39,798 nt of DNA from an uncultured Clostridia bacterium (GCA_944393475.1 CALYAI010000002.1:1-39798), one strand, 5' to 3'; positions 1,405 through 33,327 are shown, counted from the stretch's first letter. Notes: generated from the letters alone by a model not told the origin. A program made the numbers and translations.

Positions 1405-1436
1405 ATAAAAAAATTCTTTTCAATTAACGAGAATTA
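1405..1436 (-). terminator. weak candidate terminator after the 712-aa gene
   Basis: A 6-bp AT-rich stem (AATTCT/AGAATT, 1430-1435 and 1412-1417) is followed by a T-run on the minus strand. The stem is short and the loop long. Confidence 0.25.
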
Positions 1437-3562
1437 TCTTTATTAAGACCTGTTTCTTGCCCTCTTAAAATTGATTCCATGCTTTCTATTTGATTCATTA
1501 TCTCACCTGTTCTTATTCTAGCTTTTGTAGCTTCAATACTTTTTGCTAAAAATCCACTATATCTTCTTTCTGTTAATTTTGCACTTACTAAATCAGTTAC
1601 ATTTTGTTTTAACTTAGATTTTTCACTTTCATCTTGCCCATAAAATGCTTTATCAATAAGCATTTCTGATAAACTCTGTGCTTCTGCTATTGGAATCTTT
1701 TCCCTTTTAAATGTTTTTGTTATTGCAAGATAATCTTCTACAAATCTATCATAATCTATTGAATCTGCATTTTTATGATCAGTTTCCTCATCACTTTCTT
1801 TTGAAGTCATATATTCTCCATATTCTATTTTAGAGTACATTTCATTGAATACAATCCTTCTAAAAAAGCTCTCTTTTACATCTTGAATATTTTCTCTTGT
1901 GGCTTGTATACTTCCATTTGTAATTCTAAATCGTTTAATTTCTGTAGACAATAATTTATCTGTTTCTGTTGCATCATCTATTCCTATAAATGTTTCTTGT
2001 TCATCACTAGCCAATATAACTCTATATATTCTATCAGAACCTTTCACTTCATTTGGAAGTCCATCCCTACCTATGCATAATCTAACACTAACTCTTCCTT
2101 CTGGTGAAAAGTCTGTAACTCTATTTAATGATAGCTTGTCTAATTGACCAGTATCATTATTTAGTATATACATATTCATTTCGCCTGTATCACTTTGTAC
2201 TTCTATAAATCCCCTTGTGTCTTTTACATTTAGTTCATAGTAATTAGAAATTCTCTTTTCTTCTTCATTTTTTGCCTCAATTGATTGGAAACTCGCTAAA
2301 ACTCTACCATATTTTTGTGCTATATCCAATACCATTCTAGAGTCCTCCGGCAAGTTGTAAAAATCAATTTTCTTTATTGCATCTTCTATTTCTTCCTGTG
2401 CCATATTAGTTGCTCTTGCAATATTTCCAATTTTATTTAGTCTTTCGATATCGGTATGCCAAGGTTCTTCTTCATCTTCCTCCAAGAAGCCTTGTAATAA
2501 TTTTTCTTTAGCATTAAGATTTAATGATCTATATGGCTCTTCATCTTGATTTATTTTTCTATATTCTACTTCACCATTAGAAACTCCTTCGTTTATTGCT
2601 CCAATTATTTGAGTAGTGATTTTAAATTCTACCTCTTCTTTATTATTCTCTGGTAGACCAATTAATAGATGACTATTTTTTATTAGACTTTTTATAGTTC
2701 CTTTCAACTCTTTTTCAAAACATTTGCTACTTCTTTTTTGATCAAGATGTAATGCTTTACAAGTAGAATTATATTCTATATTAACTCCAATTATTTCATT
2801 TATGAAAGATTCAAAATCAACCTTTCCATCTTTAATATAATGCAAATCTTTAATTTGTCCCTTTTTAAATTCAAAATAAGCACTTACTAATGATTCTATT
2901 CCATATTGCATTTCTCTATTTGCAATATATTCATCTGCTTTTCCTGTAGAAAATAATAATTTATTTACTTCAGAGAAATGTTTATTTATTTCGTCTAAAT
3001 AATATCTCATTGTTGGGTTGTCTTTTCCTGCAGTCATTTGCAGATACTTTTCAAAACCTATGCCACTAGTAATATAATATTTTATTAATTGATCAGGATA
3101 CATTGCATATAGTAAAGATGCTATACTTACATTTTTATCATATGCACATTTACTTTCTCCAAATAATTTTATTGTGAAAAATTCTGTAATTCCTTCTACA
3201 AAAAAATCGTTAAAAATTTTGCCCCTTGATACTGCATGAAAAATCTCATGTCCTACAACTCTTTTATCTTTTCTTAAACTTTTAAGTACCCTTACTCTTG
3301 ATCTTCCGGTTTTTTTATCCGTATCCTGCTCACCAACAGCTATATTTCTTAAGTTTCCTTTTTCATCACTAAAGCTCCATACGGATTTTACTATTATTCT
3401 TCTAGAAAGAGGTCTAAATTGGTTATCTAATACCCATTGTTTAAATCCTCTTTCTCCTAAGAAATTATATATATCGCTAAATATATCTATAGTAACTTCT
3501 TTCATTTTTCTTTCAATTTGCTTATTTTCTTTTACACTTGCTCTTATTTGACTTTTTTCCAT
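1424..3562 (-). CDS. large hypothetical protein (712 aa) with an N-terminal zincin-like HExxH motif
   Basis: The ORF is long and uninterrupted in AT-rich DNA. A GAAGGA RBS lies 5 nt before the ATG. HEIFH at aa 105-109 (nt 3236-3250) is followed by FFVEGITEFF, a gluzincin / peptidase-MA-like arrangement. No signal peptide or TM segment is visible. The rest is helical and charged, with no motif I recognise. Confidence 0.6.
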   Translation of the reverse strand: MEKSQIRASVKENKQIERKMKEVTIDIFSDIYNFLGERGFKQWVLDNQFRPLSRRIIVKSVWSFSDEKGNLRNIAVGEQDTDKKTGRSRVRVLKSLRKDKRVVGHEIFHAVSRGKIFNDFFVEGITEFFTIKLFGESKCAYDKNVSIASLLYAMYPDQLIKYYITSGIGFEKYLQMTAGKDNPTMRYYLDEINKHFSEVNKLLFSTGKADEYIANREMQYGIESLVSAYFEFKKGQIKDLHYIKDGKVDFESFINEIIGVNIEYNSTCKALHLDQKRSSKCFEKELKGTIKSLIKNSHLLIGLPENNKEEVEFKITTQIIGAINEGVSNGEVEYRKINQDEEPYRSLNLNAKEKLLQGFLEEDEEEPWHTDIERLNKIGNIARATNMAQEEIEDAIKKIDFYNLPEDSRMVLDIAQKYGRVLASFQSIEAKNEEEKRISNYYELNVKDTRGFIEVQSDTGEMNMYILNNDTGQLDKLSLNRVTDFSPEGRVSVRLCIGRDGLPNEVKGSDRIYRVILASDEQETFIGIDDATETDKLLSTEIKRFRITNGSIQATRENIQDVKESFFRRIVFNEMYSKIEYGEYMTSKESDEETDHKNADSIDYDRFVEDYLAITKTFKREKIPIAEAQSLSEMLIDKAFYGQDESEKSKLKQNVTDLVSAKLTERRYSGFLAKSIEATKARIRTGEIMNQIESMESILRGQETGLNKDNSR

Positions 3563-3584: not shown

Positions 3585-3887
3585 TTATTTCATGAATGTA
3601 AGATAAATTACAAGCACTATTTCTGTTAATAAGATTGTTGGAAAACCTATAGTGAATTTTAGCTTTTTAGTTTTGTGTCTAAATGCATACATTCCAACTA
3701 TTCCTCCTACTCCACCGCCTAATAGAACTAGAGTAAATAGTCCTGCTTCACTAATTCTCCATTCTCCTTTTTGTGCTCTTCTTTTATCCCACCACATTGC
3801 CAAAAAAGCTAGTAAATTTATACCTATTAAATATATTAAAATATTTTTTGGTGTTAATATTGCTTTTAATAATAATTCGTAATCCAA
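3585..3887 (-). CDS. DUF1294-family small membrane protein
   Basis: MWWDKRRAQKGEWRISEAGLFTLVLLGGGVGGIVGMYAFRHKTKK matches the DUF1294 signature. The start is TTG with a GGAGGAAG RBS 6 nt upstream. Confidence 0.75.
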   Translation of the reverse strand: MDYELLLKAILTPKNILIYLIGINLLAFLAMWWDKRRAQKGEWRISEAGLFTLVLLGGGVGGIVGMYAFRHKTKKLKFTIGFPTILLTEIVLVIYLTFMK

Positions 3888-3904
3888 TATATTCTTCCTC
3901 CATA

Positions 3905-6900
3905 TTAAGCAAATAAACTCATTTGATTACTTTCTGTCATTCCTTTTAAACATCCTGCATTTCTTAAAAGATCTATTACTGAACTTCCTGCTTTTGCCCT
4001 CATTCTTATATCATCTATACACATAAATGGTTCTTCTTCCCTTGCTTTTACAATGCTGTCAGCCGCAACAGTTCCAAGTCCAGGAATACTATTTAATGGT
4101 GGTCTTATTCCATCTTCTTCTGCTATAAATTTTGTTGAATGTGACTTATATAAATCTATTGGTAGAAAATTTATTCCTCTTTCATACATTTCTAGTACTA
4201 ACTCTAATATTGCATACATGTTTTTATCCTTTGTTGTTGCAGAGTTTCCTGCTAGATCAATTTCTTTCATCTTATTTATTACTTTTTCTTTTCCATGGCA
4301 CATTATGTCACTGTCAAATTCATCGGCTCTTATTGTAAAATATGCTGTATAATATGCTTTTGGCTCATGAACTTTAAACCATGCAATTCTAAATGCATTT
4401 GTAACATAAGCTGCTGCATGTGCTTTTGGGAACATATATTTTATTTTTTCACAAGATTTTACATACCAATCTGGTACATCGTGTTCTTTCATTTCTTCTT
4501 TATAGTGATCCCACTTTGGTTCCTTACCTTTTGCAACCTTTCCTTTACGTACAGATTCCATTATTTTAAATGCATCATTTGGTGGTAATCCTTTTTTTAT
4601 TAAATATATCATTATATCATCACGACAACATATTGCCTGTGACAATGTAACTGTTCCTTCATCTATTAAAGTTTGTGCATTTCCAAGCCATACATCTGTA
4701 CCATGTGATAGTCCAGATATACGAATTAATTCATCAAATCTTTTCGGTCTTGTATCTACCAACATTCCTCTTACAAATTTAGTTCCAAACTCTGGAATTC
4801 CATAGCTTCCAACTTCTGAATGTATTTGCTCAGGAGTTACTCCTAAAGCTTTAGTTGAACTAAATATTGACATTGTATCTTTGTCATCTAAAGGAACTTT
4901 TGTTGGATCCACTCCTGTAATATCAAATAACATTCTTATCATTGTTGGATCATCATGACCAAGTATATCTAACTTAAGTAAGTTCTGATCTATTGAGTGA
5001 TAATCGAAATGTGTTGTTATAATATCTGAATTCGGATCATCCGCTGGATGCTGTACAGGTGTAAATTCATATATTTCTCTACCTTTTGGTACAACTATAA
5101 TTCCTCCCGGATGTTGACCTGTTGTCCTTTTTATTCCTGTACAACCTTGTGAAATTCTTGCAACTTCTGCATTTGCAACTGGTATGTTTCTTTCTTCGTA
5201 ATATTTTTTTACATATCCAAAAGCTGTTTTATCTGCAACTGTACCAACAGTTCCAGCCTTAAATGTTGTCCCTTTACCAAATATTACTTCTGTATATCTG
5301 TGTGCTTTTGCCTGGTATTCTCCGGAGAAATTTAAGTCTATATCTGGTTCTTTATCTCCATTAAAACCTAAGAATGTTTCAAACGGTATATCCATACCAT
5401 CTTTTACCATTTTAGCACCACATTTTGGACAATCTTTATCCGGCAAATCGAATCCATTCTCATAACCATAGTCCGTAAAATCTGAATATTTACAATTTGG
5501 ACATCTATAATGTGGTGGAAGTGAATTAACCTCTGTTATTCCTGTCATGTTGGCAACAAATGATGAACCAACAGATCCTCTTGAACCAACTATATATCCA
5601 TCTTCATTTGATTTCCAAACTAGTTTTTGTGCAATTATATACATAACGGAGAAGCCATTTGATATAATTGAATTTAACTCTTTATCCAATCTCTCTTTAA
5701 CTATTTCTGGAAGCGGATCACCATATAATTCGTGTGCTTTTGAATATGCAATTTCCTTTATCGTTTCTTCGCATCCAGGTATATGTGGTGGACATTTTTC
5801 TGGCGAAATTGGGCTTATCCAATCACACATATCCGATACTTTGTTAGTATTTGTAACAACAACTTCATATGCTTTTTCTTTTCCTAAATATTCAAATTCT
5901 TTTAACATTTCTTCTGTTGTTCTTAGATACAATGGTGCTTGCTCATCAGCATCATCATATCCCTGTCCTGCTTGTAACATTCTTCTATATATTTCATCTT
6001 CTGGATCCATAAAATGTACATCACATGTTGCAACAACTAACTTGTTTAATTTTTCTCCTATTTCTACTATTTTTCTATTAATATTTTTTAGTCCTTCTTC
6101 ATCTGCAACAGTTCCATTTTTTACCAAGAATTCATTGTTTCCTAATGGTTGAATTTCTAAATAATCATAGTCTTTTGCAATTTCTTCTATTTCTTCATCA
6201 GTCTTTCCTTTTTCTATGGCTTGATATAGCTCTCCTGCTTCACAAGCACTTCCTAAAATTAAACCTTCAGAATATTTTTTATATATTGATTTTAATATTC
6301 TTGGTTTTTTGTAAAAATAGTCCAAATGTGAAATAGAAATTAATTTATATAAATTTTTTAGTCCAACATAATTAGTAGCAAGTATTATAGCATGATATGT
6401 AGGTAGTCTTTTGTAATCTGCTTCTCCTGCAATCTTTTTAGTTATGTCATCAAGTGTTTTTACATCTTTTTCTTTTAACATTTTTATCATTACATTTAAG
6501 ACTTTTACTGTAGTATCCACATCATCTAGGGCTCTATGGGCTACTTCTACCTTTATTCCTAGTTTTTCTGCAATTAGTCCTAATTTATATTTTTTAAAGT
6601 CTGGGAATAGATCTTTTGCCAATCTTAATGTGTCCAAATATGTATTTTCCAAACTTAATCCAAGCTCATTTGCATTATATTTTAAAAATCCAATATCAAA
6701 ATCTGCATTATGTGCAACCAAAACAGAATCTCCAACAAACTCTATTATTTTAGGCATTACTTTATCTATTGTTTCTGCATCCTTTACCATGTCATCCGTA
6801 ATATTAGTAACCTCTACAACTCTTTGTGGTATAGGCTTTTCTGGATTTACAAAACATGAAAACTCATCTATTACTTCTCCATTTTTTACTTTCATTATTC

Positions 6901-20166: not shown

Positions 20167-20718
20167 ATGGAAAAAAGATTAGTTAAACTTAGTCTACTAG
20201 CTCCTGCTTCTGTAGAATTATCTGAAGAAGGTTTAGCAATATATGACGAAAATAGAGAAAAATTTGAAAAAGATGCACAACTTAACGGTAATAAATTAGA
20301 AATGCCTTTAGTTAACCTAATGCGTTTATTTGGAGATCATATCCATGATTCTAATAATCCTTTCGTTACAAATTCTATCGAATTGGATAATCCAAATAAT
20401 GACCAAATAGTTGGGAGAACTAGCTCTACAAGATATCGTTTACCTTTAGACACTAAAACTGCATTTCTTATAGAAACACATAATATGCAAAAAGTTTTAA
20501 TTTTCCTACAACACTTAAAAAATAGAGAATGTAATTATAAAGTATCTAAAAAGGGAATTGTAACTTCATTACGTGACCTTATGCCTTTATTTTCACAAAA
20601 TATAATTAATACTAAATTAACAAATACAACATGGTTTCCTATTTTAGGAGTCAAAACAGAAGATGTAGAAGTAGTTCAAAGTAAATCTTCTTCATTAGAT
20701 GATACTGGCGAAAGATAA
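20167..20718 (+). CDS. hypothetical protein (183 aa) co-transcribed with the PHP gene
   Basis: A strong AAGGAGG RBS lies 6 nt upstream, and the gene starts 19 nt after the PHP stop. It has an internal two-fold repeat (LVNLMRLFGDHI and LRDLMPLFSQNI). I recognise no family. Confidence 0.6.
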   Translation: MEKRLVKLSLLAPASVELSEEGLAIYDENREKFEKDAQLNGNKLEMPLVNLMRLFGDHIHDSNNPFVTNSIELDNPNNDQIVGRTSSTRYRLPLDTKTAFLIETHNMQKVLIFLQHLKNRECNYKVSKKGIVTSLRDLMPLFSQNIINTKLTNTTWFPILGVKTEDVEVVQSKSSSLDDTGER

Positions 20719-20721
20719 TGC

Positions 20722-20757
20722 AAAAGAACTTCAGGTTCAAACTGAAGTTCTTTTTAT
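20722..20757. terminator. bidirectional intrinsic terminator
   Basis: A perfect 12-bp hairpin AAAGAACTTCAG-(gttcaaa)-CTGAAGTTCTTT is flanked by A/T runs. It lies between the convergent 183-aa and 592-aa genes. Confidence 0.75.
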
Positions 20758-20762
20758 AATAC

Positions 20763-22541
20763 TTATCTTCCATTATCGTCCAAATCTTTACCTTGGTCAG
20801 GTCTACTTGCTATTTCCTCTCTCTTTTTTCGCAAACATTCATATGCCTTTCCAACTTCCTCTGCTTGTAAATATAGAGGAAGGTTTATGCTAAGCGTTGC
20901 ACCAAATCTACCCAAATCATGAGATATTACTCCATCCGTAGGTTTAATTTTTCTAAAATCTTTTTCTTCAATTCCACCCTCTAATGAAAGTTCTATATTA
21001 GATTTTTTACCTACTAACATTCCTGGTGGCACCACTTTTTGCAAAGTCTCGCACGCTAATTGATTCTTAAATTTATATAATTCTCCCAACCTAATTTGAC
21101 TAATTTGCTCTGCTGTTGGACGAGGCTTTTGCGATTGCTCTCTTTCGTATTGTTCTTGCATTCCAAATATTTCTCTTATTAAATCTTTTTCCTCTTTTGT
21201 TGGTCTATTTTCATCATTTATAAATTGTTTTAGTTCTTCTATATTTGCTAGTACTTCTTCGTCTGTTGCAAATGCATAGTTACCTTCTTCTGTTTTTCTT
21301 ATCCCTGATGCTAAAATAAATTTTGCAGTTTCTAAATATTTAGAATCTCTTTCTTCATTTATCTCCATGTTTTCTAAAAACATAGCTTCTTGCTCTCCGC
21401 TAAATCGACTAAAGGTACAACTATAATTTTGACTAAGAATACTCATAAAAGGACCTATTTCTTCCGATGTAAGTATTGGTGGTTCTTTAGATATATAAGC
21501 TTCATCCCTCATATAACTTATAATTCTGTCTCTTGTAGCTAATATATCTTCTGCATAAGCTCTAGATGACCAAGCATGTGCAGCATTATTACTATCTGTC
21601 TCTGCTATTTCATAACCATTTATTCTTAAAAAATTTTGTAAACATATTGTTGGATCTCCATCATAATAAATAATGTTATAATTACCCAATTCTTCTTGGC
21701 TTATTGGTAGTTTTCCACTATCTTGTATATTTACCATTATAACAGCATCTTTACTAAGATGTATACTTGTACCTTTAGTCCAGGTATCTGAAGAAGACTC
21801 AGATTCTAATTCTGCCTGATGCTCACTGTAATTATCTATTACAATATAATTTGGCCTATCCCAATTACCTTCTCCTGCTCCTGTACTTTCTACTCTTGCA
21901 TTAATTGTACAATGTACTTCGTGCCTGTGTACTAAAGTCCTAAACTCTTTATTTACGCCATTATATTTAACAGTAACAGGATAGCCCAATTTAACTCCAT
22001 CCCAATCTGATAAAATTACATTATTTCTTGGGAAAAAGTTTGTACAATGAACCAATACCTTCTTTTCTGGATCTATTATTGAACAATTTATTTTACTATA
22101 TTCTCCCAAGCTAGTCGCAGTATCTGTTATTATTAATTTACCATCTTGTTCCCTAAAAGATCCATCATGCTCTCTTGTTTGTCTTATTCTTGAAATTACA
22201 GCTTTTTCATCTGCGATTAATTCTTCTTCATTTTTTTCCAATCTTTTTTGTTCTTCTTTTGCACTTTCCAGTTGTTTTTCCAATCCTTCTATTTGTCTAC
22301 TTACTTCATAATATTTACCTCTATGGAATATATTAGCTATTCTATCCCATATCCTAGATTTTTCTTTAACAACCATAGCTCTAGAACTTTCTGTTTCTAA
22401 TCTTTCTATTTTCCAATCATTAGCATTTATGTCTCTTCTAACTCTTTGTAGTTCCATATCTACTTTTTTTTGTAAAATATCTAATCTTTTACGTTCTCTT
22501 AAATCATCAGTAATTCTTTTTGCTTTAAAATCTTGTAGCAT
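20763..22541 (-). CDS. hypothetical protein (592 aa) with an N-terminal coiled coil
   Basis: The ORF is long and clean, with an AAGGAGGA RBS upstream (complement of 22546-22553). The first ~125 aa are heptad-like and charged. The central region contains VLVHCTNFFPRNNV...LVHRHEVHCTINARVESTGAGEGNWDRPNYIVID. The C-terminal half is helical and acidic. There is no signal peptide or TM segment, and I recognise no family. Confidence 0.65.
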   Translation of the reverse strand: MLQDFKAKRITDDLRERKRLDILQKKVDMELQRVRRDINANDWKIERLETESSRAMVVKEKSRIWDRIANIFHRGKYYEVSRQIEGLEKQLESAKEEQKRLEKNEEELIADEKAVISRIRQTREHDGSFREQDGKLIITDTATSLGEYSKINCSIIDPEKKVLVHCTNFFPRNNVILSDWDGVKLGYPVTVKYNGVNKEFRTLVHRHEVHCTINARVESTGAGEGNWDRPNYIVIDNYSEHQAELESESSSDTWTKGTSIHLSKDAVIMVNIQDSGKLPISQEELGNYNIIYYDGDPTICLQNFLRINGYEIAETDSNNAAHAWSSRAYAEDILATRDRIISYMRDEAYISKEPPILTSEEIGPFMSILSQNYSCTFSRFSGEQEAMFLENMEINEERDSKYLETAKFILASGIRKTEEGNYAFATDEEVLANIEELKQFINDENRPTKEEKDLIREIFGMQEQYEREQSQKPRPTAEQISQIRLGELYKFKNQLACETLQKVVPPGMLVGKKSNIELSLEGGIEEKDFRKIKPTDGVISHDLGRFGATLSINLPLYLQAEEVGKAYECLRKKREEIASRPDQGKDLDDNGR

Positions 22542-25391: not shown

Positions 25392-25420
25392 TTGTTTTTT
25401 TCGCATTTTTATAGGATAAT
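25392..25420 (+). promoter_or_regulatory. putative sigma-A promoter for the coupling-protein-like gene
   Basis: TTGTTT (25392-25397), a 17-nt spacer, then GATAAT (25415-25420). Confidence 0.3.
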
Positions 25421-25462
25421 ATATATGTGTAATTATAAATAAAATGAAAGTGGTGGCATGTT

Positions 25463-27793
25463 TTGAAACTTTTCGATAAATTTTTGAAAAAATTAAAAAC
25501 TAATAGAAATACTTTTTTAACATATATTTTAACTCTTATATCTATTTATATTCTTGTAGATAGAGTTGTAGAGTTACTATTTTTATTTTTTAGTGGAATA
25601 TCATTATCATATTGGGGACCAGTTAAATATACTTTAGCAATAGCATGTGTTGTTTTTGCTTTCCTATTTTCTGGTGCTTCATCATTCACATCTTCTAAAA
25701 AAACAAAATTATCATTTATGTATACATATATAACTGTACTGTATACAATTATAATTTCAATGATTGTACAATGGATAAATGAAGGTATGTGGCTTTTATT
25801 AATGTCCATCCCTAATTATGTTGGATTAATTACAACTTCTTCAGAATTAATAAAACCTGCTTTTACAGCAATAGCAATATATATACCTTTAACAACTTTC
25901 TTTGCAATATTTAAGTTTATATATACAAAAGTAAATGATAATGAAGATATGAGAAATTCTATATTGGATTTTAAAGGTATCGATTTATCAGAAGGTCCAA
26001 AAAATGTAGGACCATATACTTGTGAAAATATTCTTTGTATGGACACGGACTTAGGAAAACCTGCTGTCCTTGCAGAAGACAAAAGATTTGAATCTACTTT
26101 AATAGTTGGTTCTTCAGGTACTGGTAAAACATCAATGGTTATAGAACCAATGGTAGCAAGGGATATAGAGAAAAAATTATTCTTCGAAGAAAATGCTAAA
26201 GAAATGGGATTTACAGCTTTAAAAACTGGTCTTGCAACACTTCAAGCACCATTTAATAACGAATATTTAAATAAAAATTTTAATCTAAACATGTTAAAAC
26301 CTGTTGAAAGCAAACTAAAATTATATAAAGCTTATATGAAAAAAATGATTTTAGATTCTTCTTCAGAAGACATAAAATATAAAAACTTAGGAATTACAGC
26401 CATAGCACCGGACTTTGCTTCTATAGAAAATATGATGAAAGTAGCGGATAACTTTAATATACCATATAATCTAATCGATCCAGATAATATGGATTCTATT
26501 GGTATTAATCCATTTACTTTTGATGACCCATTAAAAACAGCTGTTGCTATTTCTTCTGTACTAAGAAGTATGTATAATACAACACATACAGATGTTGAAG
26601 AAGCTTTTCGTGATAATGTAACAAGTCAAGCAATAGAAAATCTATCCATACTATTAAAAGTAATGTATCCAAAATTAAATGATGGAGATCTACCAACATT
26701 AACAGATATGTTAGAAATGTTAACTGATTTTGATGTAGCAGAAGATATGTGTAGAAAAATGGAATATGATGAAGAATTATCTGCTAAATATAAAATGCAA
26801 ATAGCTTATTTTAAGAAGAATTTTTATAGAACTGGTTCAGGAAGAGCAGATACGGAAAAATTTGTATATTCAGCTGTTACACAATTGGATAATCTTCTAA
26901 GAAACGAAGGTGTACGAAATATCCTTTGTAATAGAAATGATAACATTAATTTCGATGAAGTATTGGAAAATGGTGGTGTTACATTTGTATGTACACGTAG
27001 AGGAGATTTGGGTGCAGCAACACATAAAGCATTTGGATTATTTTTCTTAATATTAATGCAATATTCTGTTCTAAGAAGACCTGGAAACGAAAAGAATAGA
27101 GTCCCTCATTTCCTATACATAGATGAATTTCCAGACTTCTTATGTAAAGACATAGATGCAATATTTACCCTATACAGAAAATATCGTGTTGGTACATTAA
27201 TTACAGCCCAAAACTTAGAGCAATTAGGAAATCAAGTATATTCAAGATATAGACAAACTATTCTTGCTAACTGTGCAAATAAACTTTTATTTGGTGGTGC
27301 AACACCTGAGGACAGAGAATGGTGGTCTAAAGAATTTGGTAACAGAAGAAAATGGAGATATAAAAATGACTACCACACTGAAAAAGGATCTTATGACGAA
27401 AAATATGGTCAAATCGAATATGGTTGGACTGCATATTTTAAGGCTGATAAATTAAGAGCTTTAAAACCTAAACATTGTGCATATAAAATAGTAAGTCCTA
27501 AAGGTGGAGTTCAAGTAGGAAAAGGTAAAGTAGATTTTATAAGTTCAAAGTATAAAGAAAAACAAAAAATTAAATATTTTAATTTTGAAAAATATACTGG
27601 TGGTATTTTTGATGAATCAGAACCAAGATTTAAGAGAAAACCTAAATTTAATTATGGTAATGTAGACTTCACAGATAAAAATAATTCAACAGAAATAGAT
27701 CCAATAAAAACAGATACTTCAGATTCAAATTTCTTATTTGATAATGATGATGCAATAATTGTAGACTTAAAAAAAGGAAATCCTAATAAATAG
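25463..27793 (+). CDS. VirD4/TraG/TraD-family type IV coupling protein-like ATPase, membrane anchored (776 aa)
   Basis: About 5 N-terminal hydrophobic segments span aa 18-155. Walker A GSSGTGKTS lies at nt 26108-26134 and Walker B HFLYIDEFPDF has its DE at nt 27122-27127. RKYRVGTLITAQNLEQLG...ANCANKLLFGG matches the T4CP C-terminal motifs. A Lys-rich tail of ~120 aa follows. The start is TTG. Confidence 0.75.
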   Translation: MKLFDKFLKKLKTNRNTFLTYILTLISIYILVDRVVELLFLFFSGISLSYWGPVKYTLAIACVVFAFLFSGASSFTSSKKTKLSFMYTYITVLYTIIISMIVQWINEGMWLLLMSIPNYVGLITTSSELIKPAFTAIAIYIPLTTFFAIFKFIYTKVNDNEDMRNSILDFKGIDLSEGPKNVGPYTCENILCMDTDLGKPAVLAEDKRFESTLIVGSSGTGKTSMVIEPMVARDIEKKLFFEENAKEMGFTALKTGLATLQAPFNNEYLNKNFNLNMLKPVESKLKLYKAYMKKMILDSSSEDIKYKNLGITAIAPDFASIENMMKVADNFNIPYNLIDPDNMDSIGINPFTFDDPLKTAVAISSVLRSMYNTTHTDVEEAFRDNVTSQAIENLSILLKVMYPKLNDGDLPTLTDMLEMLTDFDVAEDMCRKMEYDEELSAKYKMQIAYFKKNFYRTGSGRADTEKFVYSAVTQLDNLLRNEGVRNILCNRNDNINFDEVLENGGVTFVCTRRGDLGAATHKAFGLFFLILMQYSVLRRPGNEKNRVPHFLYIDEFPDFLCKDIDAIFTLYRKYRVGTLITAQNLEQLGNQVYSRYRQTILANCANKLLFGGATPEDREWWSKEFGNRRKWRYKNDYHTEKGSYDEKYGQIEYGWTAYFKADKLRALKPKHCAYKIVSPKGGVQVGKGKVDFISSKYKEKQKIKYFNFEKYTGGIFDESEPRFKRKPKFNYGNVDFTDKNNSTEIDPIKTDTSDSNFLFDNDDAIIVDLKKGNPNK

Positions 27794-27805
27794 GATTTCT
27801 TTTTT
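27777..27805. terminator. bidirectional intrinsic terminator between convergent genes
   Basis: The hairpin GAAATCCT-(aataaat)-AGGATTTC is flanked by A6 and T6 runs. It overlaps the TAG stop of the + gene and abuts the stop of the - gene. Confidence 0.55.
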
Positions 27806-28748
27806 ATTCCATTTCTAATAATTTTAAATCAACATTTACTATTTTATATTTGTTAGTACTTTCATCCAATCTAAATTCTATTAAAGTATCTTCCAATGAT
27901 TCTTTATTCTGTCTTAAATCTGTTGTAAAATATAATTTTATTTTTGATATTTCTACCCTTTTTGTTACTATAGCTCTAAAGGTTTCTGCAGCATGTTTTT
28001 CATCTTCACAAACAAATATTAGTTGAGGCATTATTGCAAATCCAGAATCTCCTGGAACAAAATTGTCATAAAAATCGTTATACAATCTCATTTTTTCTAC
28101 TAACTTATTCTCCCAATCCTCTTCTCTCCTTACAACTTCGAATAAGAATGATATTGATTTATTGTTTTTAGTTAATTTTACACTTCCACCAGAAGCTTTA
28201 AATGTCTTTCCTGTGGCTTTTGCAGTAAGTTGTGGTTTTACCACGTATGAATCAAATGCTTTTACTTTTCTTAAATATGCTAATAATGTTTGGTTACCTG
28301 CAAGTCTTTTCTTTATTAAAGCAACAGGTTTTACATTATCTGTAGGTTGCCATTTACATTCTATATCTCTAGAATTTAATAAATATTTCCCCATTTTTTC
28401 TAAGCAATATATTCTATATATTCCTTTTCCATCTTCTGAATGGAAATAATATCTTGTTAATATTTTTGTTTTAATTAATTGTTCTAACTTTTTATTTAAT
28501 TTATCTTGTGATTTTATATCTATTCCTTTTATTTGTAGTAATTGATAAATTTGTCTTGATGTTATAAATTCAAATTCGTTTACAATCTCTAATATTTGGA
28601 AATGAAGATCTGTAATATGTCCTAAATTTATTTTATTAATGATTTGATTCATCGAAACATAACCATCTTTTCCGTCAAATACTTTTATTTCACCTTCTCT
28701 AATTGCAAAAGGTGATACTTCTGCTTTTATTTGACTATCTTCTACCAT
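27804..28748 (-). CDS. replication-relaxation-family-like protein (wHTH plus a possible nuclease-like C-terminal domain), 314 aa
   Basis: ITDLHFQILEIVNEFEFITSRQIYQLLQ...LNKKLEQLIKTKILTRYYF...YCLEKMGKYLL fits the wHTH pattern of the replication-relaxation family. The C-terminal part contains FLFEVVRRE...LIFVCEDEKH. A GGAGGA RBS abuts the stop of the upstream S1 gene. The family call is by eye. Confidence 0.5.
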   Translation of the reverse strand: MVEDSQIKAEVSPFAIREGEIKVFDGKDGYVSMNQIINKINLGHITDLHFQILEIVNEFEFITSRQIYQLLQIKGIDIKSQDKLNKKLEQLIKTKILTRYYFHSEDGKGIYRIYCLEKMGKYLLNSRDIECKWQPTDNVKPVALIKKRLAGNQTLLAYLRKVKAFDSYVVKPQLTAKATGKTFKASGGSVKLTKNNKSISFLFEVVRREEDWENKLVEKMRLYNDFYDNFVPGDSGFAIMPQLIFVCEDEKHAAETFRAIVTKRVEISKIKLYFTTDLRQNKESLEDTLIEFRLDESTNKYKIVNVDLKLLEME

Positions 28749-28761
28749 ATAAGATTCCTCC

Positions 28762-29250
28762 TTAACATATTATTAATTTTATTTTTTTCTTTTCTGGAAT
28801 TATTTTCTTTATAAATACATCTACTTGTTTTCCATACTCTATTCCTTCTTGATATTCTGCCATTCCAACAAGGTTTGGTTTTAATTCTATAAAAATACCA
28901 TTTTTGTGTGACTCAGTATTTCGTATAATTCCTTTTACTTTTGTTCCTTCTTTAAATAATTTTGCATTTTCTTCCCATGTTCCAAGTAATTCTTTGTATG
29001 TAAACATTATTCTATTTTTTTCTTTATCAATACTTTTTACTTTTACATCTATTTCTTGTCCTATGGAAAATCTATCATATGGACTTTTTATCCTTGCAAC
29101 GGACATGTCTTCTATATGTAATAGTCCTACTACGCCATTTTCTAATTCTATAAATGCTCCATATGGTTGTATACTTTTTACTTTTCCTTTTACAACCATA
29201 TCTTTTTTTAAAGAATCATCAAACGGAATATATTTTTTGTAATTCATCAT
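28762..29250 (-). CDS. S1 RNA-binding domain protein (two S1/OB repeats)
   Basis: VVKGKVKSIQPYGAFIELENGVVGLLHIEDMS and VKGIIRNTESHKNGIFIELKPNLVGMAEY are S1 motifs. Confidence 0.8.
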   Translation of the reverse strand: MMNYKKYIPFDDSLKKDMVVKGKVKSIQPYGAFIELENGVVGLLHIEDMSVARIKSPYDRFSIGQEIDVKVKSIDKEKNRIMFTYKELLGTWEENAKLFKEGTKVKGIIRNTESHKNGIFIELKPNLVGMAEYQEGIEYGKQVDVFIKKIIPEKKKIKLIIC

Positions 29251-29314
29251 TATTTCCCCTTATCATTAGTATAATCTGTTATTATTATATAGTTTTCTTT
29301 TATTTTAATCAATA

Positions 29315-31674: not shown

Positions 31675-33327
31675 CTATTCAACATTTCTTTCGTATATTA
31701 CAAAACGCTCATCTGAGTATAATTCTTTATATTCATAATTTCTAGATAAAAATAAATTCAATTTAGCATTTTTAAAACATATAACATGTGTAATATCATA
31801 ATCTTCAAATTTATTTTCATAATATGTCCCTATATTTGAAATATTTAAAAAGTCATCAAAAACTGTGCATCCAGGGTTAAATTCAGGAGTATATAAATCC
31901 GCTCTAGAATCTATAAATACTGGTATTCCTCTAAATAGCATATAACTTCCGTAATTATATTCATTATATATTCTTATATTATTTATATCTAAATTAGCTA
32001 ATATATAGTCACATGCTTCTACAGGGTATGAAGATTCATCAACATAAGTGTCATCTTTCTTTGGTTTATATATGTTTGTACTTATAATTATAACAATACA
32101 CAATGTAATTACTATTCCATATAATCCTGTCATTTCTTTAAATAGTCTTTTCATATCATCCATACATTTATATTTTCTAAAGAATGCTAATACCAGCTTG
32201 CAATATATTGGCATTCCTAGTAATACCAATATTGATGTCTGCCTTCTTGACATTAAAGCTAATATTACTAATCCTCCAAACATAAATAAATCTCTTAATT
32301 TAATTTTAATATCTGTAAGCATTAATCCAGCAATTACTAGTACTATTAAAATTAAAATATCTTTTTGATTAATTAATGTTAGTGGTAAGTGTTCATTAAT
32401 ATTTTCTGTAGTATCACCCTGCATTGTATCTATTAAATATGTGTATGGCGTTGTTCCCAATGGTGTGCATAATCCTAATAAACCAGCAATTAACATTACT
32501 AAAATTAGGTATTTAATGTTTTTATTTCTTTCTATTTTTATTTTATATGGATTCTTTCTATTGCTTTCTCTTCTTTGTTTTATTTCTTCTCTCTCTTGTT
32601 CTATTTTAGCTATTTCATCTTCTATTCCTTTTACTTTTTCTTGATTTTTATTTAAGATTTTTTTCTTAACACTAAAAAGTAGTTTTTTAATTTTTAGTAC
32701 TAAATCTAAGTCAACAATTACACATATTAAATATTCTGCTATATATGGTAAGAATAGAACAAAGAAAAATGGCCAAACAGCTACATGTAAATTTGCCATT
32801 AAAACACTAATTAAGAGTAGTCCTATAGCATATCCTATTTTTCGATTTCGTATAAATCTCTCTATAAAAAATACTTCCAAAACAAATAATATAAATGTTA
32901 CTAATTGTGCTCTTGCAGTTATATATGATTTTATTAAATATATCGCTCCCAATGTAAAGATAAATGGAACAATATGATTTTTAGTCATTTTTACATTTGT
33001 AAAATATAATGCTAGTCCTAATATGCAAGTAAAAATTACTGTTGCAATATAAATAGCTGTCCATCCTCCTAAGTGATATAAGAAGTATGTCATTAAATCA
33101 TATAGCCAATGTGGATATTCATAATTTAAATTTTCATGCCAAGAAAAGTGGTCCTTCCCATCTATTCCATTCTGTGTTATTGATTCTCCAATTGCTACAC
33201 TATAATATGTATCATTTTGAAATGTTATTGGAGTTATTGCTATACAAAATACAATTATACATATAACAGCTAATATATTAAATATAAGTATTTTTTTCTT
33301 AGGTAGTTTTTCACTTTTGTTTTTCAT
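31675..33327 (-). CDS. large polytopic membrane protein, possibly a GT-C-fold glycosyltransferase
   Basis: There are at least 10 hydrophobic segments. An early extracytoplasmic loop contains TFQNDTYYSVAIGESI...HFSWHENLNYEYPHWLYD. A charged coiled-coil-like loop (KVKGIEDEIAKIEQEREEIKQRRESNRKN) and a soluble C-terminal domain follow. The family call rests on architecture only. Confidence 0.4.
   Translation of the reverse strand: MKNKSEKLPKKKILIFNILAVICIIVFCIAITPITFQNDTYYSVAIGESITQNGIDGKDHFSWHENLNYEYPHWLYDLMTYFLYHLGGWTAIYIATVIFTCILGLALYFTNVKMTKNHIVPFIFTLGAIYLIKSYITARAQLVTFILFVLEVFFIERFIRNRKIGYAIGLLLISVLMANLHVAVWPFFFVLFLPYIAEYLICVIVDLDLVLKIKKLLFSVKKKILNKNQEKVKGIEDEIAKIEQEREEIKQRRESNRKNPYKIKIERNKNIKYLILVMLIAGLLGLCTPLGTTPYTYLIDTMQGDTTENINEHLPLTLINQKDILILIVLVIAGLMLTDIKIKLRDLFMFGGLVILALMSRRQTSILVLLGMPIYCKLVLAFFRKYKCMDDMKRLFKEMTGLYGIVITLCIVIIISTNIYKPKKDDTYVDESSYPVEACDYILANLDINNIRIYNEYNYGSYMLFRGIPVFIDSRADLYTPEFNPGCTVFDDFLNISNIGTYYENKFEDYDITHVICFKNAKLNLFLSRNYEYKELYSDERFVIYERNVE

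Follow-up and report, generated by a model that had tools for sequence, protein, structure and literature searches.

Coupling proteins and relaxases are hallmarks of mobile genetic elements, and genome-mining tools call plasmids, integrative and conjugative elements (ICEs) and integrative and mobilizable elements (IMEs) by them. What, then, do such genes do when they lie between core genes of a chromosome? The question is raised by a 39,798-nt stretch of DNA from an uncultured Clostridia bacterium (GCA_944393475.1, CALYAI010000002.1:1-39798; the whole stretch is called the window hereafter), in which the gene for a 776-aa ATPase of the VirD4/TraG/TraD type, starting with TTG, lies tail to tail with the gene for a 314-aa protein of the replication-relaxation type (RR314), with 10 bp between the two stop codons. 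An initial annotation made from the sequence alone had described these open reading frames (ORFs), their motifs and their convergent layout exactly as they were found here, and had proposed a domesticated two-component module for DNA translocation, DNA sensing or defence that is wired into a housekeeping operon. From the comparative analysis presented below, the locus is read, with somewhat more confidence than doubt, as a module of three genes of plasmid or phage ancestry which has become fixed and vertically inherited on the chromosome and serves the cell rather than a mobile element, the third gene encoding a small S1/OB-fold protein. The hosts are 'Clostridium sp. CAG:354' and relatives, which make up a large clade of low-GC Clostridia from the gut, all of them uncultured; in hundreds of gut species of humans and animals, abundant and uncultured alike, the hallmark genes evolve slowly and have the character of core genes.

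Assignment of the ATPase to the type IV coupling proteins (T4CPs) is borne out by three Pfam models scoring over their gathering cut-offs, TraG-D_C (PF12696, 44.2 bits versus 22), T4SS-DNA_transf (PF02534, 33.9 versus 20.1) and TrwB_AAD_bind (PF10412, 30.8 versus 20.5). The protein reaches no NCBIfam equivalog cut-off of the characterised T4CP subfamilies, with conju_CD1115 (E 2.6e-15, 56.3 bits) being far under its cut-off of 250 and TraD_Ftype and Bacteroid_MobC at 19.8 and 32.6 bits (cut-offs 521 and 900, respectively), and a search with the ATPase alignment profile gave no PDB match by sequence for the family. Four to five hydrophobic segments are found at the N-terminus (residues 17-155), followed by Walker A (GSSGTGKTS at 216), Walker B (YIDEFPDF at 552) and the motifs TAQNLEQL (581) and NCANKLLFGG (603). 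The Walker A pattern G-x-x-G-K-T, D554 of Walker B and Q583 are invariant in the ATPases of 80 species. The last 136 residues contain 17.6% lysine, and this tail ends in an acidic peptide (FLFDNDDAIIVDL) that is conserved in the alignment of relatives.

RR314 matches the Pfam family Replic_Relax (PF13814; 31.6 bits versus 25.3, E 2.2e-07, residues 53-228), narrowly confirming the family proposed for it, and a protein 94% identical to it is named 'replication-relaxation family protein' at NCBI. Among 1.84 billion cluster representatives, the homologue search returned 377 clusters at E ≤ 1e-3, and RR314 is a distant, distinct subfamily of PF13814 for which neither a PDB match by sequence, a tblastn match in 50,697 phage records nor a PHROG was found. 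The AlphaFold2 model (28 homologues in the alignment, pLDDT 77.6) comprises an N-terminal peptide, a winged helix-turn-helix (wHTH) domain at about residues 45-125, with a helix-helix-helix-strand-strand unit at 47-116, and an alpha/beta C-terminal domain at about 140-310. The N-terminal peptide, VSPFAIREGEIKxFDGKDGYVS, is disordered in the model and almost invariant among relatives (the SPFA peptide in the following). When the full model was compared with the PDB by Foldseek, FokI came first (E 5.8e-4), followed by many wHTH proteins of the PadR, MarR and Fur types, matched at a probability of 1.0, while among predicted viral structures the Bacillus phage G protein gp146 (E 4e-12) and a phage JL protein (2e-11) were retrieved at TM-scores of 0.57-0.70. 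With the C-terminal domain alone, XisH, AF2093, YaeQ, Cap4, NucC, PaqCI, Can2, BstEII and HamA were obtained, nearly all of them PD-(D/E)XK proteins, the matches being weak (E 0.012-0.9, TM-score 0.3-0.5). The PD-(D/E)xK likeness suggested from the patterns FLFEV (201-205) and FVCEDEK (245-251), both of which are present, may hold at the level of the fold. PF13814 has been placed in the PD-(D/E)XK superfamily by Steczkiewicz et al. (PMC3424549). Across the subfamily alignment E204, R207, E248, D249 and H252 are conserved. Nuclease activity of RR314, and especially site-specific nicking, is putative.

As had been noted initially, the GGAGGA ribosome-binding site (RBS) of the RR314 gene abuts the stop codon of the S1 gene: the TAA is followed directly by GGAGGA and ATG, and from this stop/RBS/start junction translation of the two genes is predicted to be linked. 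The conclusion drawn at that time, wiring of RR314 into a housekeeping operon with rluB, is not supported, nor is that of a two-component module, since the S1 gene adjoins RR genes on unrelated plasmids and is fused to RR in single proteins and hence is to be counted, on these comparisons, as a third module member and not as a housekeeping gene. In the fusion proteins P0425, P0433, P0452 and P0418, which come from the 377 clusters, an S1 module with two or three OB domains precedes the RR part, with the SPFA peptide kept at the junction, and P0418 bears additional PASTA domains. The S1 parts at the N-termini of these four proteins are homologous to the window S1 protein (162 aa, two OB domains; 31-42% identity, E 1e-35 to 2e-13), to which the S1 proteins encoded ahead of RR on plasmids are weakly related. 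The S1 partner has this length and domain content in the CAG:354 lineage and 267-290 aa with three OB domains in others, the window protein being a shortened form of the three-OB protein. Moreover, the 64 bp that separate rluB from S1 contain a promoter-like site, from which S1 and RR may be expressed as a bicistron of their own; it is a consensus match only, and it is tentative, as 64 promoter-consensus matches were found in the window versus 58 expected from shuffled sequence. In loci from other genomes, the S1 partner was found at L081:9167-9970, L102:9202-9985 and L103:9178-9985, being split into two ORFs in two loci.

Evidence for the ancestry of the trio comes from plasmids. By tblastn against 72,556 plasmids (PLSDB), RR314 relatives were found in only 16 records falling into six groups, C. 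botulinum p12/29-type, C. beijerinckii p1, Thermoanaerobacterium pMU3262, B. thuringiensis BTB_502p, Paenibacillus and C. perfringens pJFP838A, and in all six plasmid families inspected a gene annotated as 'S1 RNA-binding domain' is located immediately 5' of RR. Identities on plasmids are 23-30% for RR314 and 27-32% for the ATPase, with the closest ATPase relatives at 30-32% and a coverage of up to 82%. The top plasmid matches of ATPase and RR314 coincide (C. botulinum p12/29-type, C. beijerinckii p1 and Thermoanaerobacterium pMU3262), and of the other window genes none has a specific counterpart on the plasmids with RR, where LepB and SSB give generic matches. On sequence comparison, the trio thus is a module that stems from a mobile element, where it most plausibly served a transfer system of Gram-positive type as its front end for DNA processing and coupling. 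The ATPase gene lies 6-8 kb from the S1-RR cassette on the Clostridium plasmids and about 43 kb from it on pMU3262, a weaker ATPase match is found about 10 kb from the cassette on BTB_502p (Bt407), and on Clostridium and Bacillus plasmids the ATPase gene is divergent from S1-RR; on pJFP838A and the Paenibacillus plasmid the S1-RR cassette alone was seen. The p12/29-type plasmid pFWSKR40E1 additionally encodes a DUF87/VirB4-like ATPase, a VirB11/PilB-like ATPase and wall hydrolases. In PLSDB/MOB-suite, every RR-bearing plasmid is typed, as even CloDF13 is, as 'non-mobilizable', and several of them carry mating-pair-formation (MPF)-type genes; RR/MOBC-like proteins are evidently missed by this typing. 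As a separate observation, BTB_502p, the Paenibacillus plasmid and pJFP838A have a conserved block encoding a RecD-like helicase or AAA ATPase, a response regulator, S1, RR, in part tmk, an HTH protein, a metal-dependent hydrolase and, on two of the three, RecJ; by its appearance, this block would serve replication or maintenance more than transfer.

It is the setting on the chromosome that is unusual. In a scan of one genome per GTDB species, 369 relatives of the ATPase were confirmed by tblastn, and the loci of the best 80 of these 369 were analyzed in detail. All 80 belong to metagenome-assembled genomes of uncultured gut Clostridia, with ATPase identities of 53-88%. In 28 of the 80 loci, an RR gene is found downstream of the ATPase gene and convergent with it within 10 kb, most of these showing the full order hup-spoVB-T4CP><RR-S1-rluB-rluD-lspA-membrane protein and a few having insertions or being devoid of S1 or the farther genes. 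Here, RR is 66-95% identical, ATPase 54-88%, and RR is also better conserved than rluB. Exact-protein look-up of RR gave the window arrangement in nine of nine loci (L081-L086 and L102-L104), and the recurrent flanking families inspected across the 80 loci are housekeeping genes among which no type IV secretion system (T4SS) gene was recognised. The pair thus recurs at the S1/rluB-spoVB locus of related genomes without T4SS genes nearby. Even in distant lineages (39-43% identity), RR directly follows rluB. Compared to the nearest species, dS is 0.65-1.0 and similar for all locus genes, whereas dN/dS amounts to 0.04-0.075 for RR314, 0.03-0.08 for S1 and 0.087-0.097 for the ATPase versus 0.11-0.20 for rluB and rluD; the trio is under stronger purifying selection than these flanking genes. 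One rumen or gut contig has a gene for a 1386-aa Phage_lysozyme2 protein between RR and ATPase (L104:11149-15309), and the convergent junction therefore tolerates insertions.

Since the module is core, syntenic, more strongly constrained than its neighbors and devoid of channel genes nearby, a plasmid-type trio has probably been taken over here for a cellular role; it may handle the chromosome or other DNA at the membrane, export DNA or feed a channel encoded elsewhere. Domestication, as proposed initially, accordingly is the best reading of the synteny, the purifying selection and the missing T4SS genes, and an ICE or IME remnant was rejected, as the window shows neither a recombinase nor an element border nor a shift in composition, the flanks are the same in dozens of species, and dS equals that of the neighbors. 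In the same way, the absence of other conjugative functions from the window was corroborated by Pfam, with no further conjugation gene, T4SS gene or recombinase/integrase in the 39.8 kb and housekeeping genes only; no att site was found in the 40 kb, and GC content and GC skew along the window show no island-like break.

The same plasmid kinship would also fit an active mobilization module, in which RR314 acts as relaxase on a chromosomal origin of transfer (oriT) and its own T4CP delivers the DNA, as in Hfr transfer or with CloDF13, to the channel of a co-resident conjugative element, or else to a T4SS that is encoded at another place of the genome, with persistence due to the benefit of gene exchange. 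MOBC relaxases with their own T4CP do work in this way on CloDF13-type plasmids and streptococcal IMEs (PMC5704250), the closest relatives are on plasmids, one of them with VirB4/VirB11-like genes, and the Walker motifs are intact in 80 species. We nevertheless deem mobilization unlikely, not only because the 40 kb show neither an integrase nor an att site, a T4SS gene or a break in composition and no oriT-like repeats were found in the intergenic regions, but also because strict synteny and selection exceeding that on housekeeping neighbors, at protein identities of 54-66%, would be unusual for a benefit from transfer only. Furthermore, a distant lineage keeps an ATPase homologue without Walker A.

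The latter lineage leads to the observations that weigh against a jointly acting, cell-serving trio. In L097 (RR 39% identity), the convergent gene (3698-5971, minus strand) encodes a 757-aa ATPase homologue of 21% identity that is collinear over 500 residues including the transmembrane (TM) domain, its Walker A being decayed to GNNELKYKY, so that it looks like a retained pseudo-ATPase; in L096 (RR 43% identity), neither S1 nor ATPase is adjacent to RR. ATPase and S1-RR are also separable within genomes. In 41 of the 80 ATPase loci, forming one clade, there is no RR within 10 kb and the ATPase neighbors are a polytopic membrane protein, glmS or obg, a P-type ATPase and queA, and a metagenome scan with the RR alignment gave 34 loci in which the order is membrane protein-rluD-rluB-S1-RR and the next 3-10 kb downstream are free of an ATPase gene, the RR sequences of 31 of these 34 belonging to a single cluster. 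These split loci are mirror images of each other and therefore suggest one ancestral rearrangement with both halves retained, co-retention in one genome being likely from the matching clade patterns; contig names from a T4CP look-up do not overlap those of the S1-RR-only set, however, and the single nucleotide match between the two locus sets is not colinear. Considering L096, L097 and this separability, the parts may work independently of each other, or not as a motor. Additional reservations concern RR314 itself, as the margin over the PF13814 cut-off is as small as 6 bits, K251, the lysine of the putative D-x-K motif, is not kept in distant relatives, and alignment with the TraX homologue of pTEF1 by hhalign resulted in a probability of 0.3 (E 0.19), a comparison of limited sensitivity with a single target sequence. 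Likewise, the search for an oriT in the flanking intergenic regions yielded only AT-rich repeats at chance level and the terminator hairpin. A 284-aa gene beside the ATPase in the 41 loci had been considered as a divergent RR and was rejected, since it encodes a polytopic membrane protein and reciprocal hidden Markov model searches were empty; nor was a divergent RR revealed in the T4CP-only loci when every ORF of the 80 loci was searched with the RR profile (hmmsearch).

Alternatively, adjacency to the ATPase would be historical only, with S1 and RR314 representing a nucleic-acid-binding regulator/nuclease pair tied to the rluB operon, active in RNA or DNA metabolism or in transcriptional control, and with the ATPase being independent. 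RR comes after rluB in each of the chromosomal lineages seen, even at 39% identity and whether or not S1 or an adjacent ATPase is present, while the ATPase has its own conserved putative promoter and is found among unrelated housekeeping genes in the 41-species clade; a regulatory role would also agree with the suggestion of Steczkiewicz et al. (PMC3424549), who regard Replic_Relax as a predicted transcriptional regulator. Such independence appears quite unlikely to us in view of the coinciding top-match sets of RR314 and ATPase in 72,556 plasmids, the recurrence of Replic_Relax proteins with T4CP/FtsK-like partners in plasmids, IMEs and phages, and the convergent layout kept even at 21% ATPase identity.

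A defence function against phages or plasmids, with RR314 as DNA-sensing nuclease effector and the ATPase as DNA-translocating sensor, had been among the initial proposals and found almost no support. The resemblance of the RR314 C-terminal fold to the nuclease domains of Cap4, NucC, Can2 and HamA is compatible with it, as are a weak match of the ATPase to the single protein mad8 in PADLOC-DB (1.1e-08), weak matches of RR314 to retron-effector and HTH-type models, and the occurrence of an RR-like domain inside proteins of 1400-1735 aa. In the latter (P0426 and P0438), the RR314-type module including the SPFA peptide is located at about residues 310-620 and is combined with NACHT/STAND and pentapeptide repeats or with a Roc-COR GTPase, NACHT/STAND and Roc-COR architectures being typical of conflict or signalling systems. 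In contrast, no PADLOC-DB system was matched as a system, the genes are core, single-copy, syntenic and slowly evolving whereas defence islands are patchy and turn over fast, and the nearest relatives are plasmid genes beside replication, recombination and transfer-type genes. A defence module is, hence, considered very improbable.

The preferred reading, a domesticated trio, can be set against known systems in which the same two protein families meet, although the initial annotation had named no described function for such a pair. In fact, PF13814 is the domain of the MOBC relaxases TraX of pAD1 and MobC of CloDF13 (PMC5357655; PMC12857230), and the gene for a MOBC relaxase is characteristically accompanied, on mobilizable plasmids as on streptococcal IMEs, by one for a dedicated VirD4-type coupling protein (PMC5704250). 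Accordingly, in the annotation of pTEF1 a 'replication-relaxation family protein' is encoded immediately 3' of a 'TraM recognition domain' ATPase. Like the window, the pAD1/pTEF1 TraX and CloDF13 MobC/MobB systems combine a PF13814 protein with wHTH and nuclease-like domains and a neighboring TM-anchored VirD4-type ATPase of its own, and the two window proteins score with the same Pfam models; unlike the window trio, which is chromosomal, core and without a T4SS nearby, they reside on conjugative or mobilizable plasmids with an oriT and, in pAD1, a full T4SS. Moreover, the two genes are co-directional there and convergent here, and the conserved N-terminal peptide of RR314 and its S1/OB partner are absent from these classical systems. 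Direct comparison with CloDF13 was precluded by the fragmented mob region of its record. Closer in sequence are the large Firmicute plasmids, which share the S1-then-RR gene order and have the closest relatives of RR314 and ATPase, their S1/RR/T4CP sets lying, in contrast to the window, amid VirB4/VirB11-like, recombination and replication-type genes.

Outside conjugative elements, Bacillus phages carry a pair of Replic_Relax and VirD4/FtsK-like ATPase (PMC3357382; PMC9703825; PMC11526630). The 'DNA translocation operon' of phages 0305phi8-36 and SPO1 resembles the window in having a MobC-like relaxase homologue with such an ATPase, and differs from it in that the phage ATPases are without TM domain and an S1 partner has not been reported; under laboratory conditions the phages can do without this operon. 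In the literature search, no description of a chromosomal or domesticated T4CP-relaxase pair was found. The gonococcal genetic island is an example of secretion of chromosomal DNA serving a cellular or population-level purpose, but unlike the window locus it is horizontally acquired and has a complete T4SS and a relaxase of the MOBH rather than the PF13814 type. Its TraI and TraD, a non-canonical relaxase and a coupling protein that process chromosomal DNA (PMC6736028), are a precedent for such a role. While the pairing of a Replic_Relax (MOBC-type) protein with a coupling ATPase is hence known, the core, syntenic and T4SS-less setting in a large clade, the S1/OB protein as third component and the link to 'non-mobilizable' plasmids are new.

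By analogy with MOBC relaxase and coupling-protein systems, a mechanism can be proposed in which RR314 would recognise a specific DNA site via its wHTH domain and its nuclease-like domain would nick or cleave there, with the S1/OB protein as an accessory factor holding the single strand or RNA. The resulting nucleoprotein complex would dock on the hexameric membrane ATPase, perhaps by way of the SPFA peptide on the RR314 side and the acidic peptide at the ATPase C-terminus, and the ATPase would spend ATP to translocate or remodel DNA. The acidic peptide recalls the tail of TraD that binds TraM. Candidate residues in this scheme are the Walker A lysine K222 of the ATPase and E204, E248 and D249 of RR314.

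Two consequences are possible: the domestication of the front end of a conjugation system, by which the FtsK/VirD4 motor family would gain a new example of exaptation, or else a lineage in which mobilization of chromosomal DNA is selected for. S1/OB, Replic_Relax and T4CP form a previously unrecognised three-part unit that is common to large plasmids of Clostridium, Bacillus, Paenibacillus and Thermoanaerobacterium. A bolder and rather doubtful extension is that an order-level clade of gut Clostridia has recruited a plasmid relaxosome, made up of the wHTH-nuclease and its OB-fold partner, and its coupling ATPase as an essential, T4SS-independent chromosome machine, and that S1-RR is the missing relaxase or initiator of the large Firmicute plasmids that count as 'non-mobilizable' in spite of their mating-channel genes. 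If true, possible roles would be site-specific processing and membrane-coupled translocation of DNA in division or sporulation, or programmed export of chromosomal DNA.

Features of the trio locus and further ORFs discussed in the text; positions refer to the window.
Feature	Position	Strand	Evidence
T4CP-like (VirD4/TraG/TraD-type) membrane ATPase, 776 aa	25463-27793	+	Pfam, motifs
RR314, Replic_Relax protein, 314 aa	27804-28748	-	Pfam, AlphaFold2 model
S1/OB-fold protein, 162 aa, two OB domains	28762-29250	-	Pfam S1, E 6.9e-21
Sigma-70-like promoter of the ATPase gene (predicted), TTGTTT, 17 nt, GATAAT	25392-25420	+	Conserved intergenic block
RBS of the ATPase gene, GTGGTGG	25450-25456	+	Conserved
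Hairpin, 15-bp stem, 5-nt loop, A-run and T-run flanks	27771-27805	both	Terminator scan, inverted-repeat search
Promoter-like site (tentative), TTGATT, 17 nt, TATAAT	29284-29312	-	Consensus match in the 64 bp between rluB and S1
712-aa ORF	1424-3562	-	
183-aa ORF and 592-aa ORF	20167-22541	+ and -	
550-aa polytopic membrane protein	31675-33327	-	
SSB, 226 aa	33413-34093	-	

In the spoVB-T4CP intergenic region, a block with CTTGTTTTTTT...TTTTATAGGATAATAT and GAAAGTGGTG is conserved in nine species, down to 62% T4CP identity; by its -35 and -10 elements, followed by the conserved RBS, it is the putative ATPase promoter. No conserved element other than promoters was found in the intergenic regions flanking the trio. 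The hairpin overlaps the 3' ends of both ATPase and RR314 genes and probably acts as a bidirectional element resembling intrinsic terminators.

The remainder of the window was analyzed with Pfam for 27 other ORFs of at least 120 aa and for hup (92 aa), leaving out ORFs inside longer genes of the opposite strand. PolC, RseP, CdsA, UppS, Frr, PyrH, LepB, DapD, MurE and DapF were assigned, and furthermore, among others, hup, a MurJ/SpoVB-like flippase, RluB, RluD, LspA, SSB and MgsA. Three tRNA genes form a tRNA-Phe/Asp/Val cluster, beside which lie the 183-aa and 592-aa ORFs; neither has a Pfam, NCBIfam, PADLOC or meaningful PHROG match, conservation of both is poor, and the 592-aa protein shows 48% identity in one related species and was undetected in the others, so that this place looks like a variable spot. 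The 712-aa ORF is without Pfam match, as is the 550-aa polytopic membrane protein, the position of which upstream of lspA is conserved. The SSB consists of two OB-like halves and a Glu/Lys-rich end, is 78-92% conserved, and is always found in the same block as the genes for the 550-aa membrane protein, lspA, rluD and rluB.

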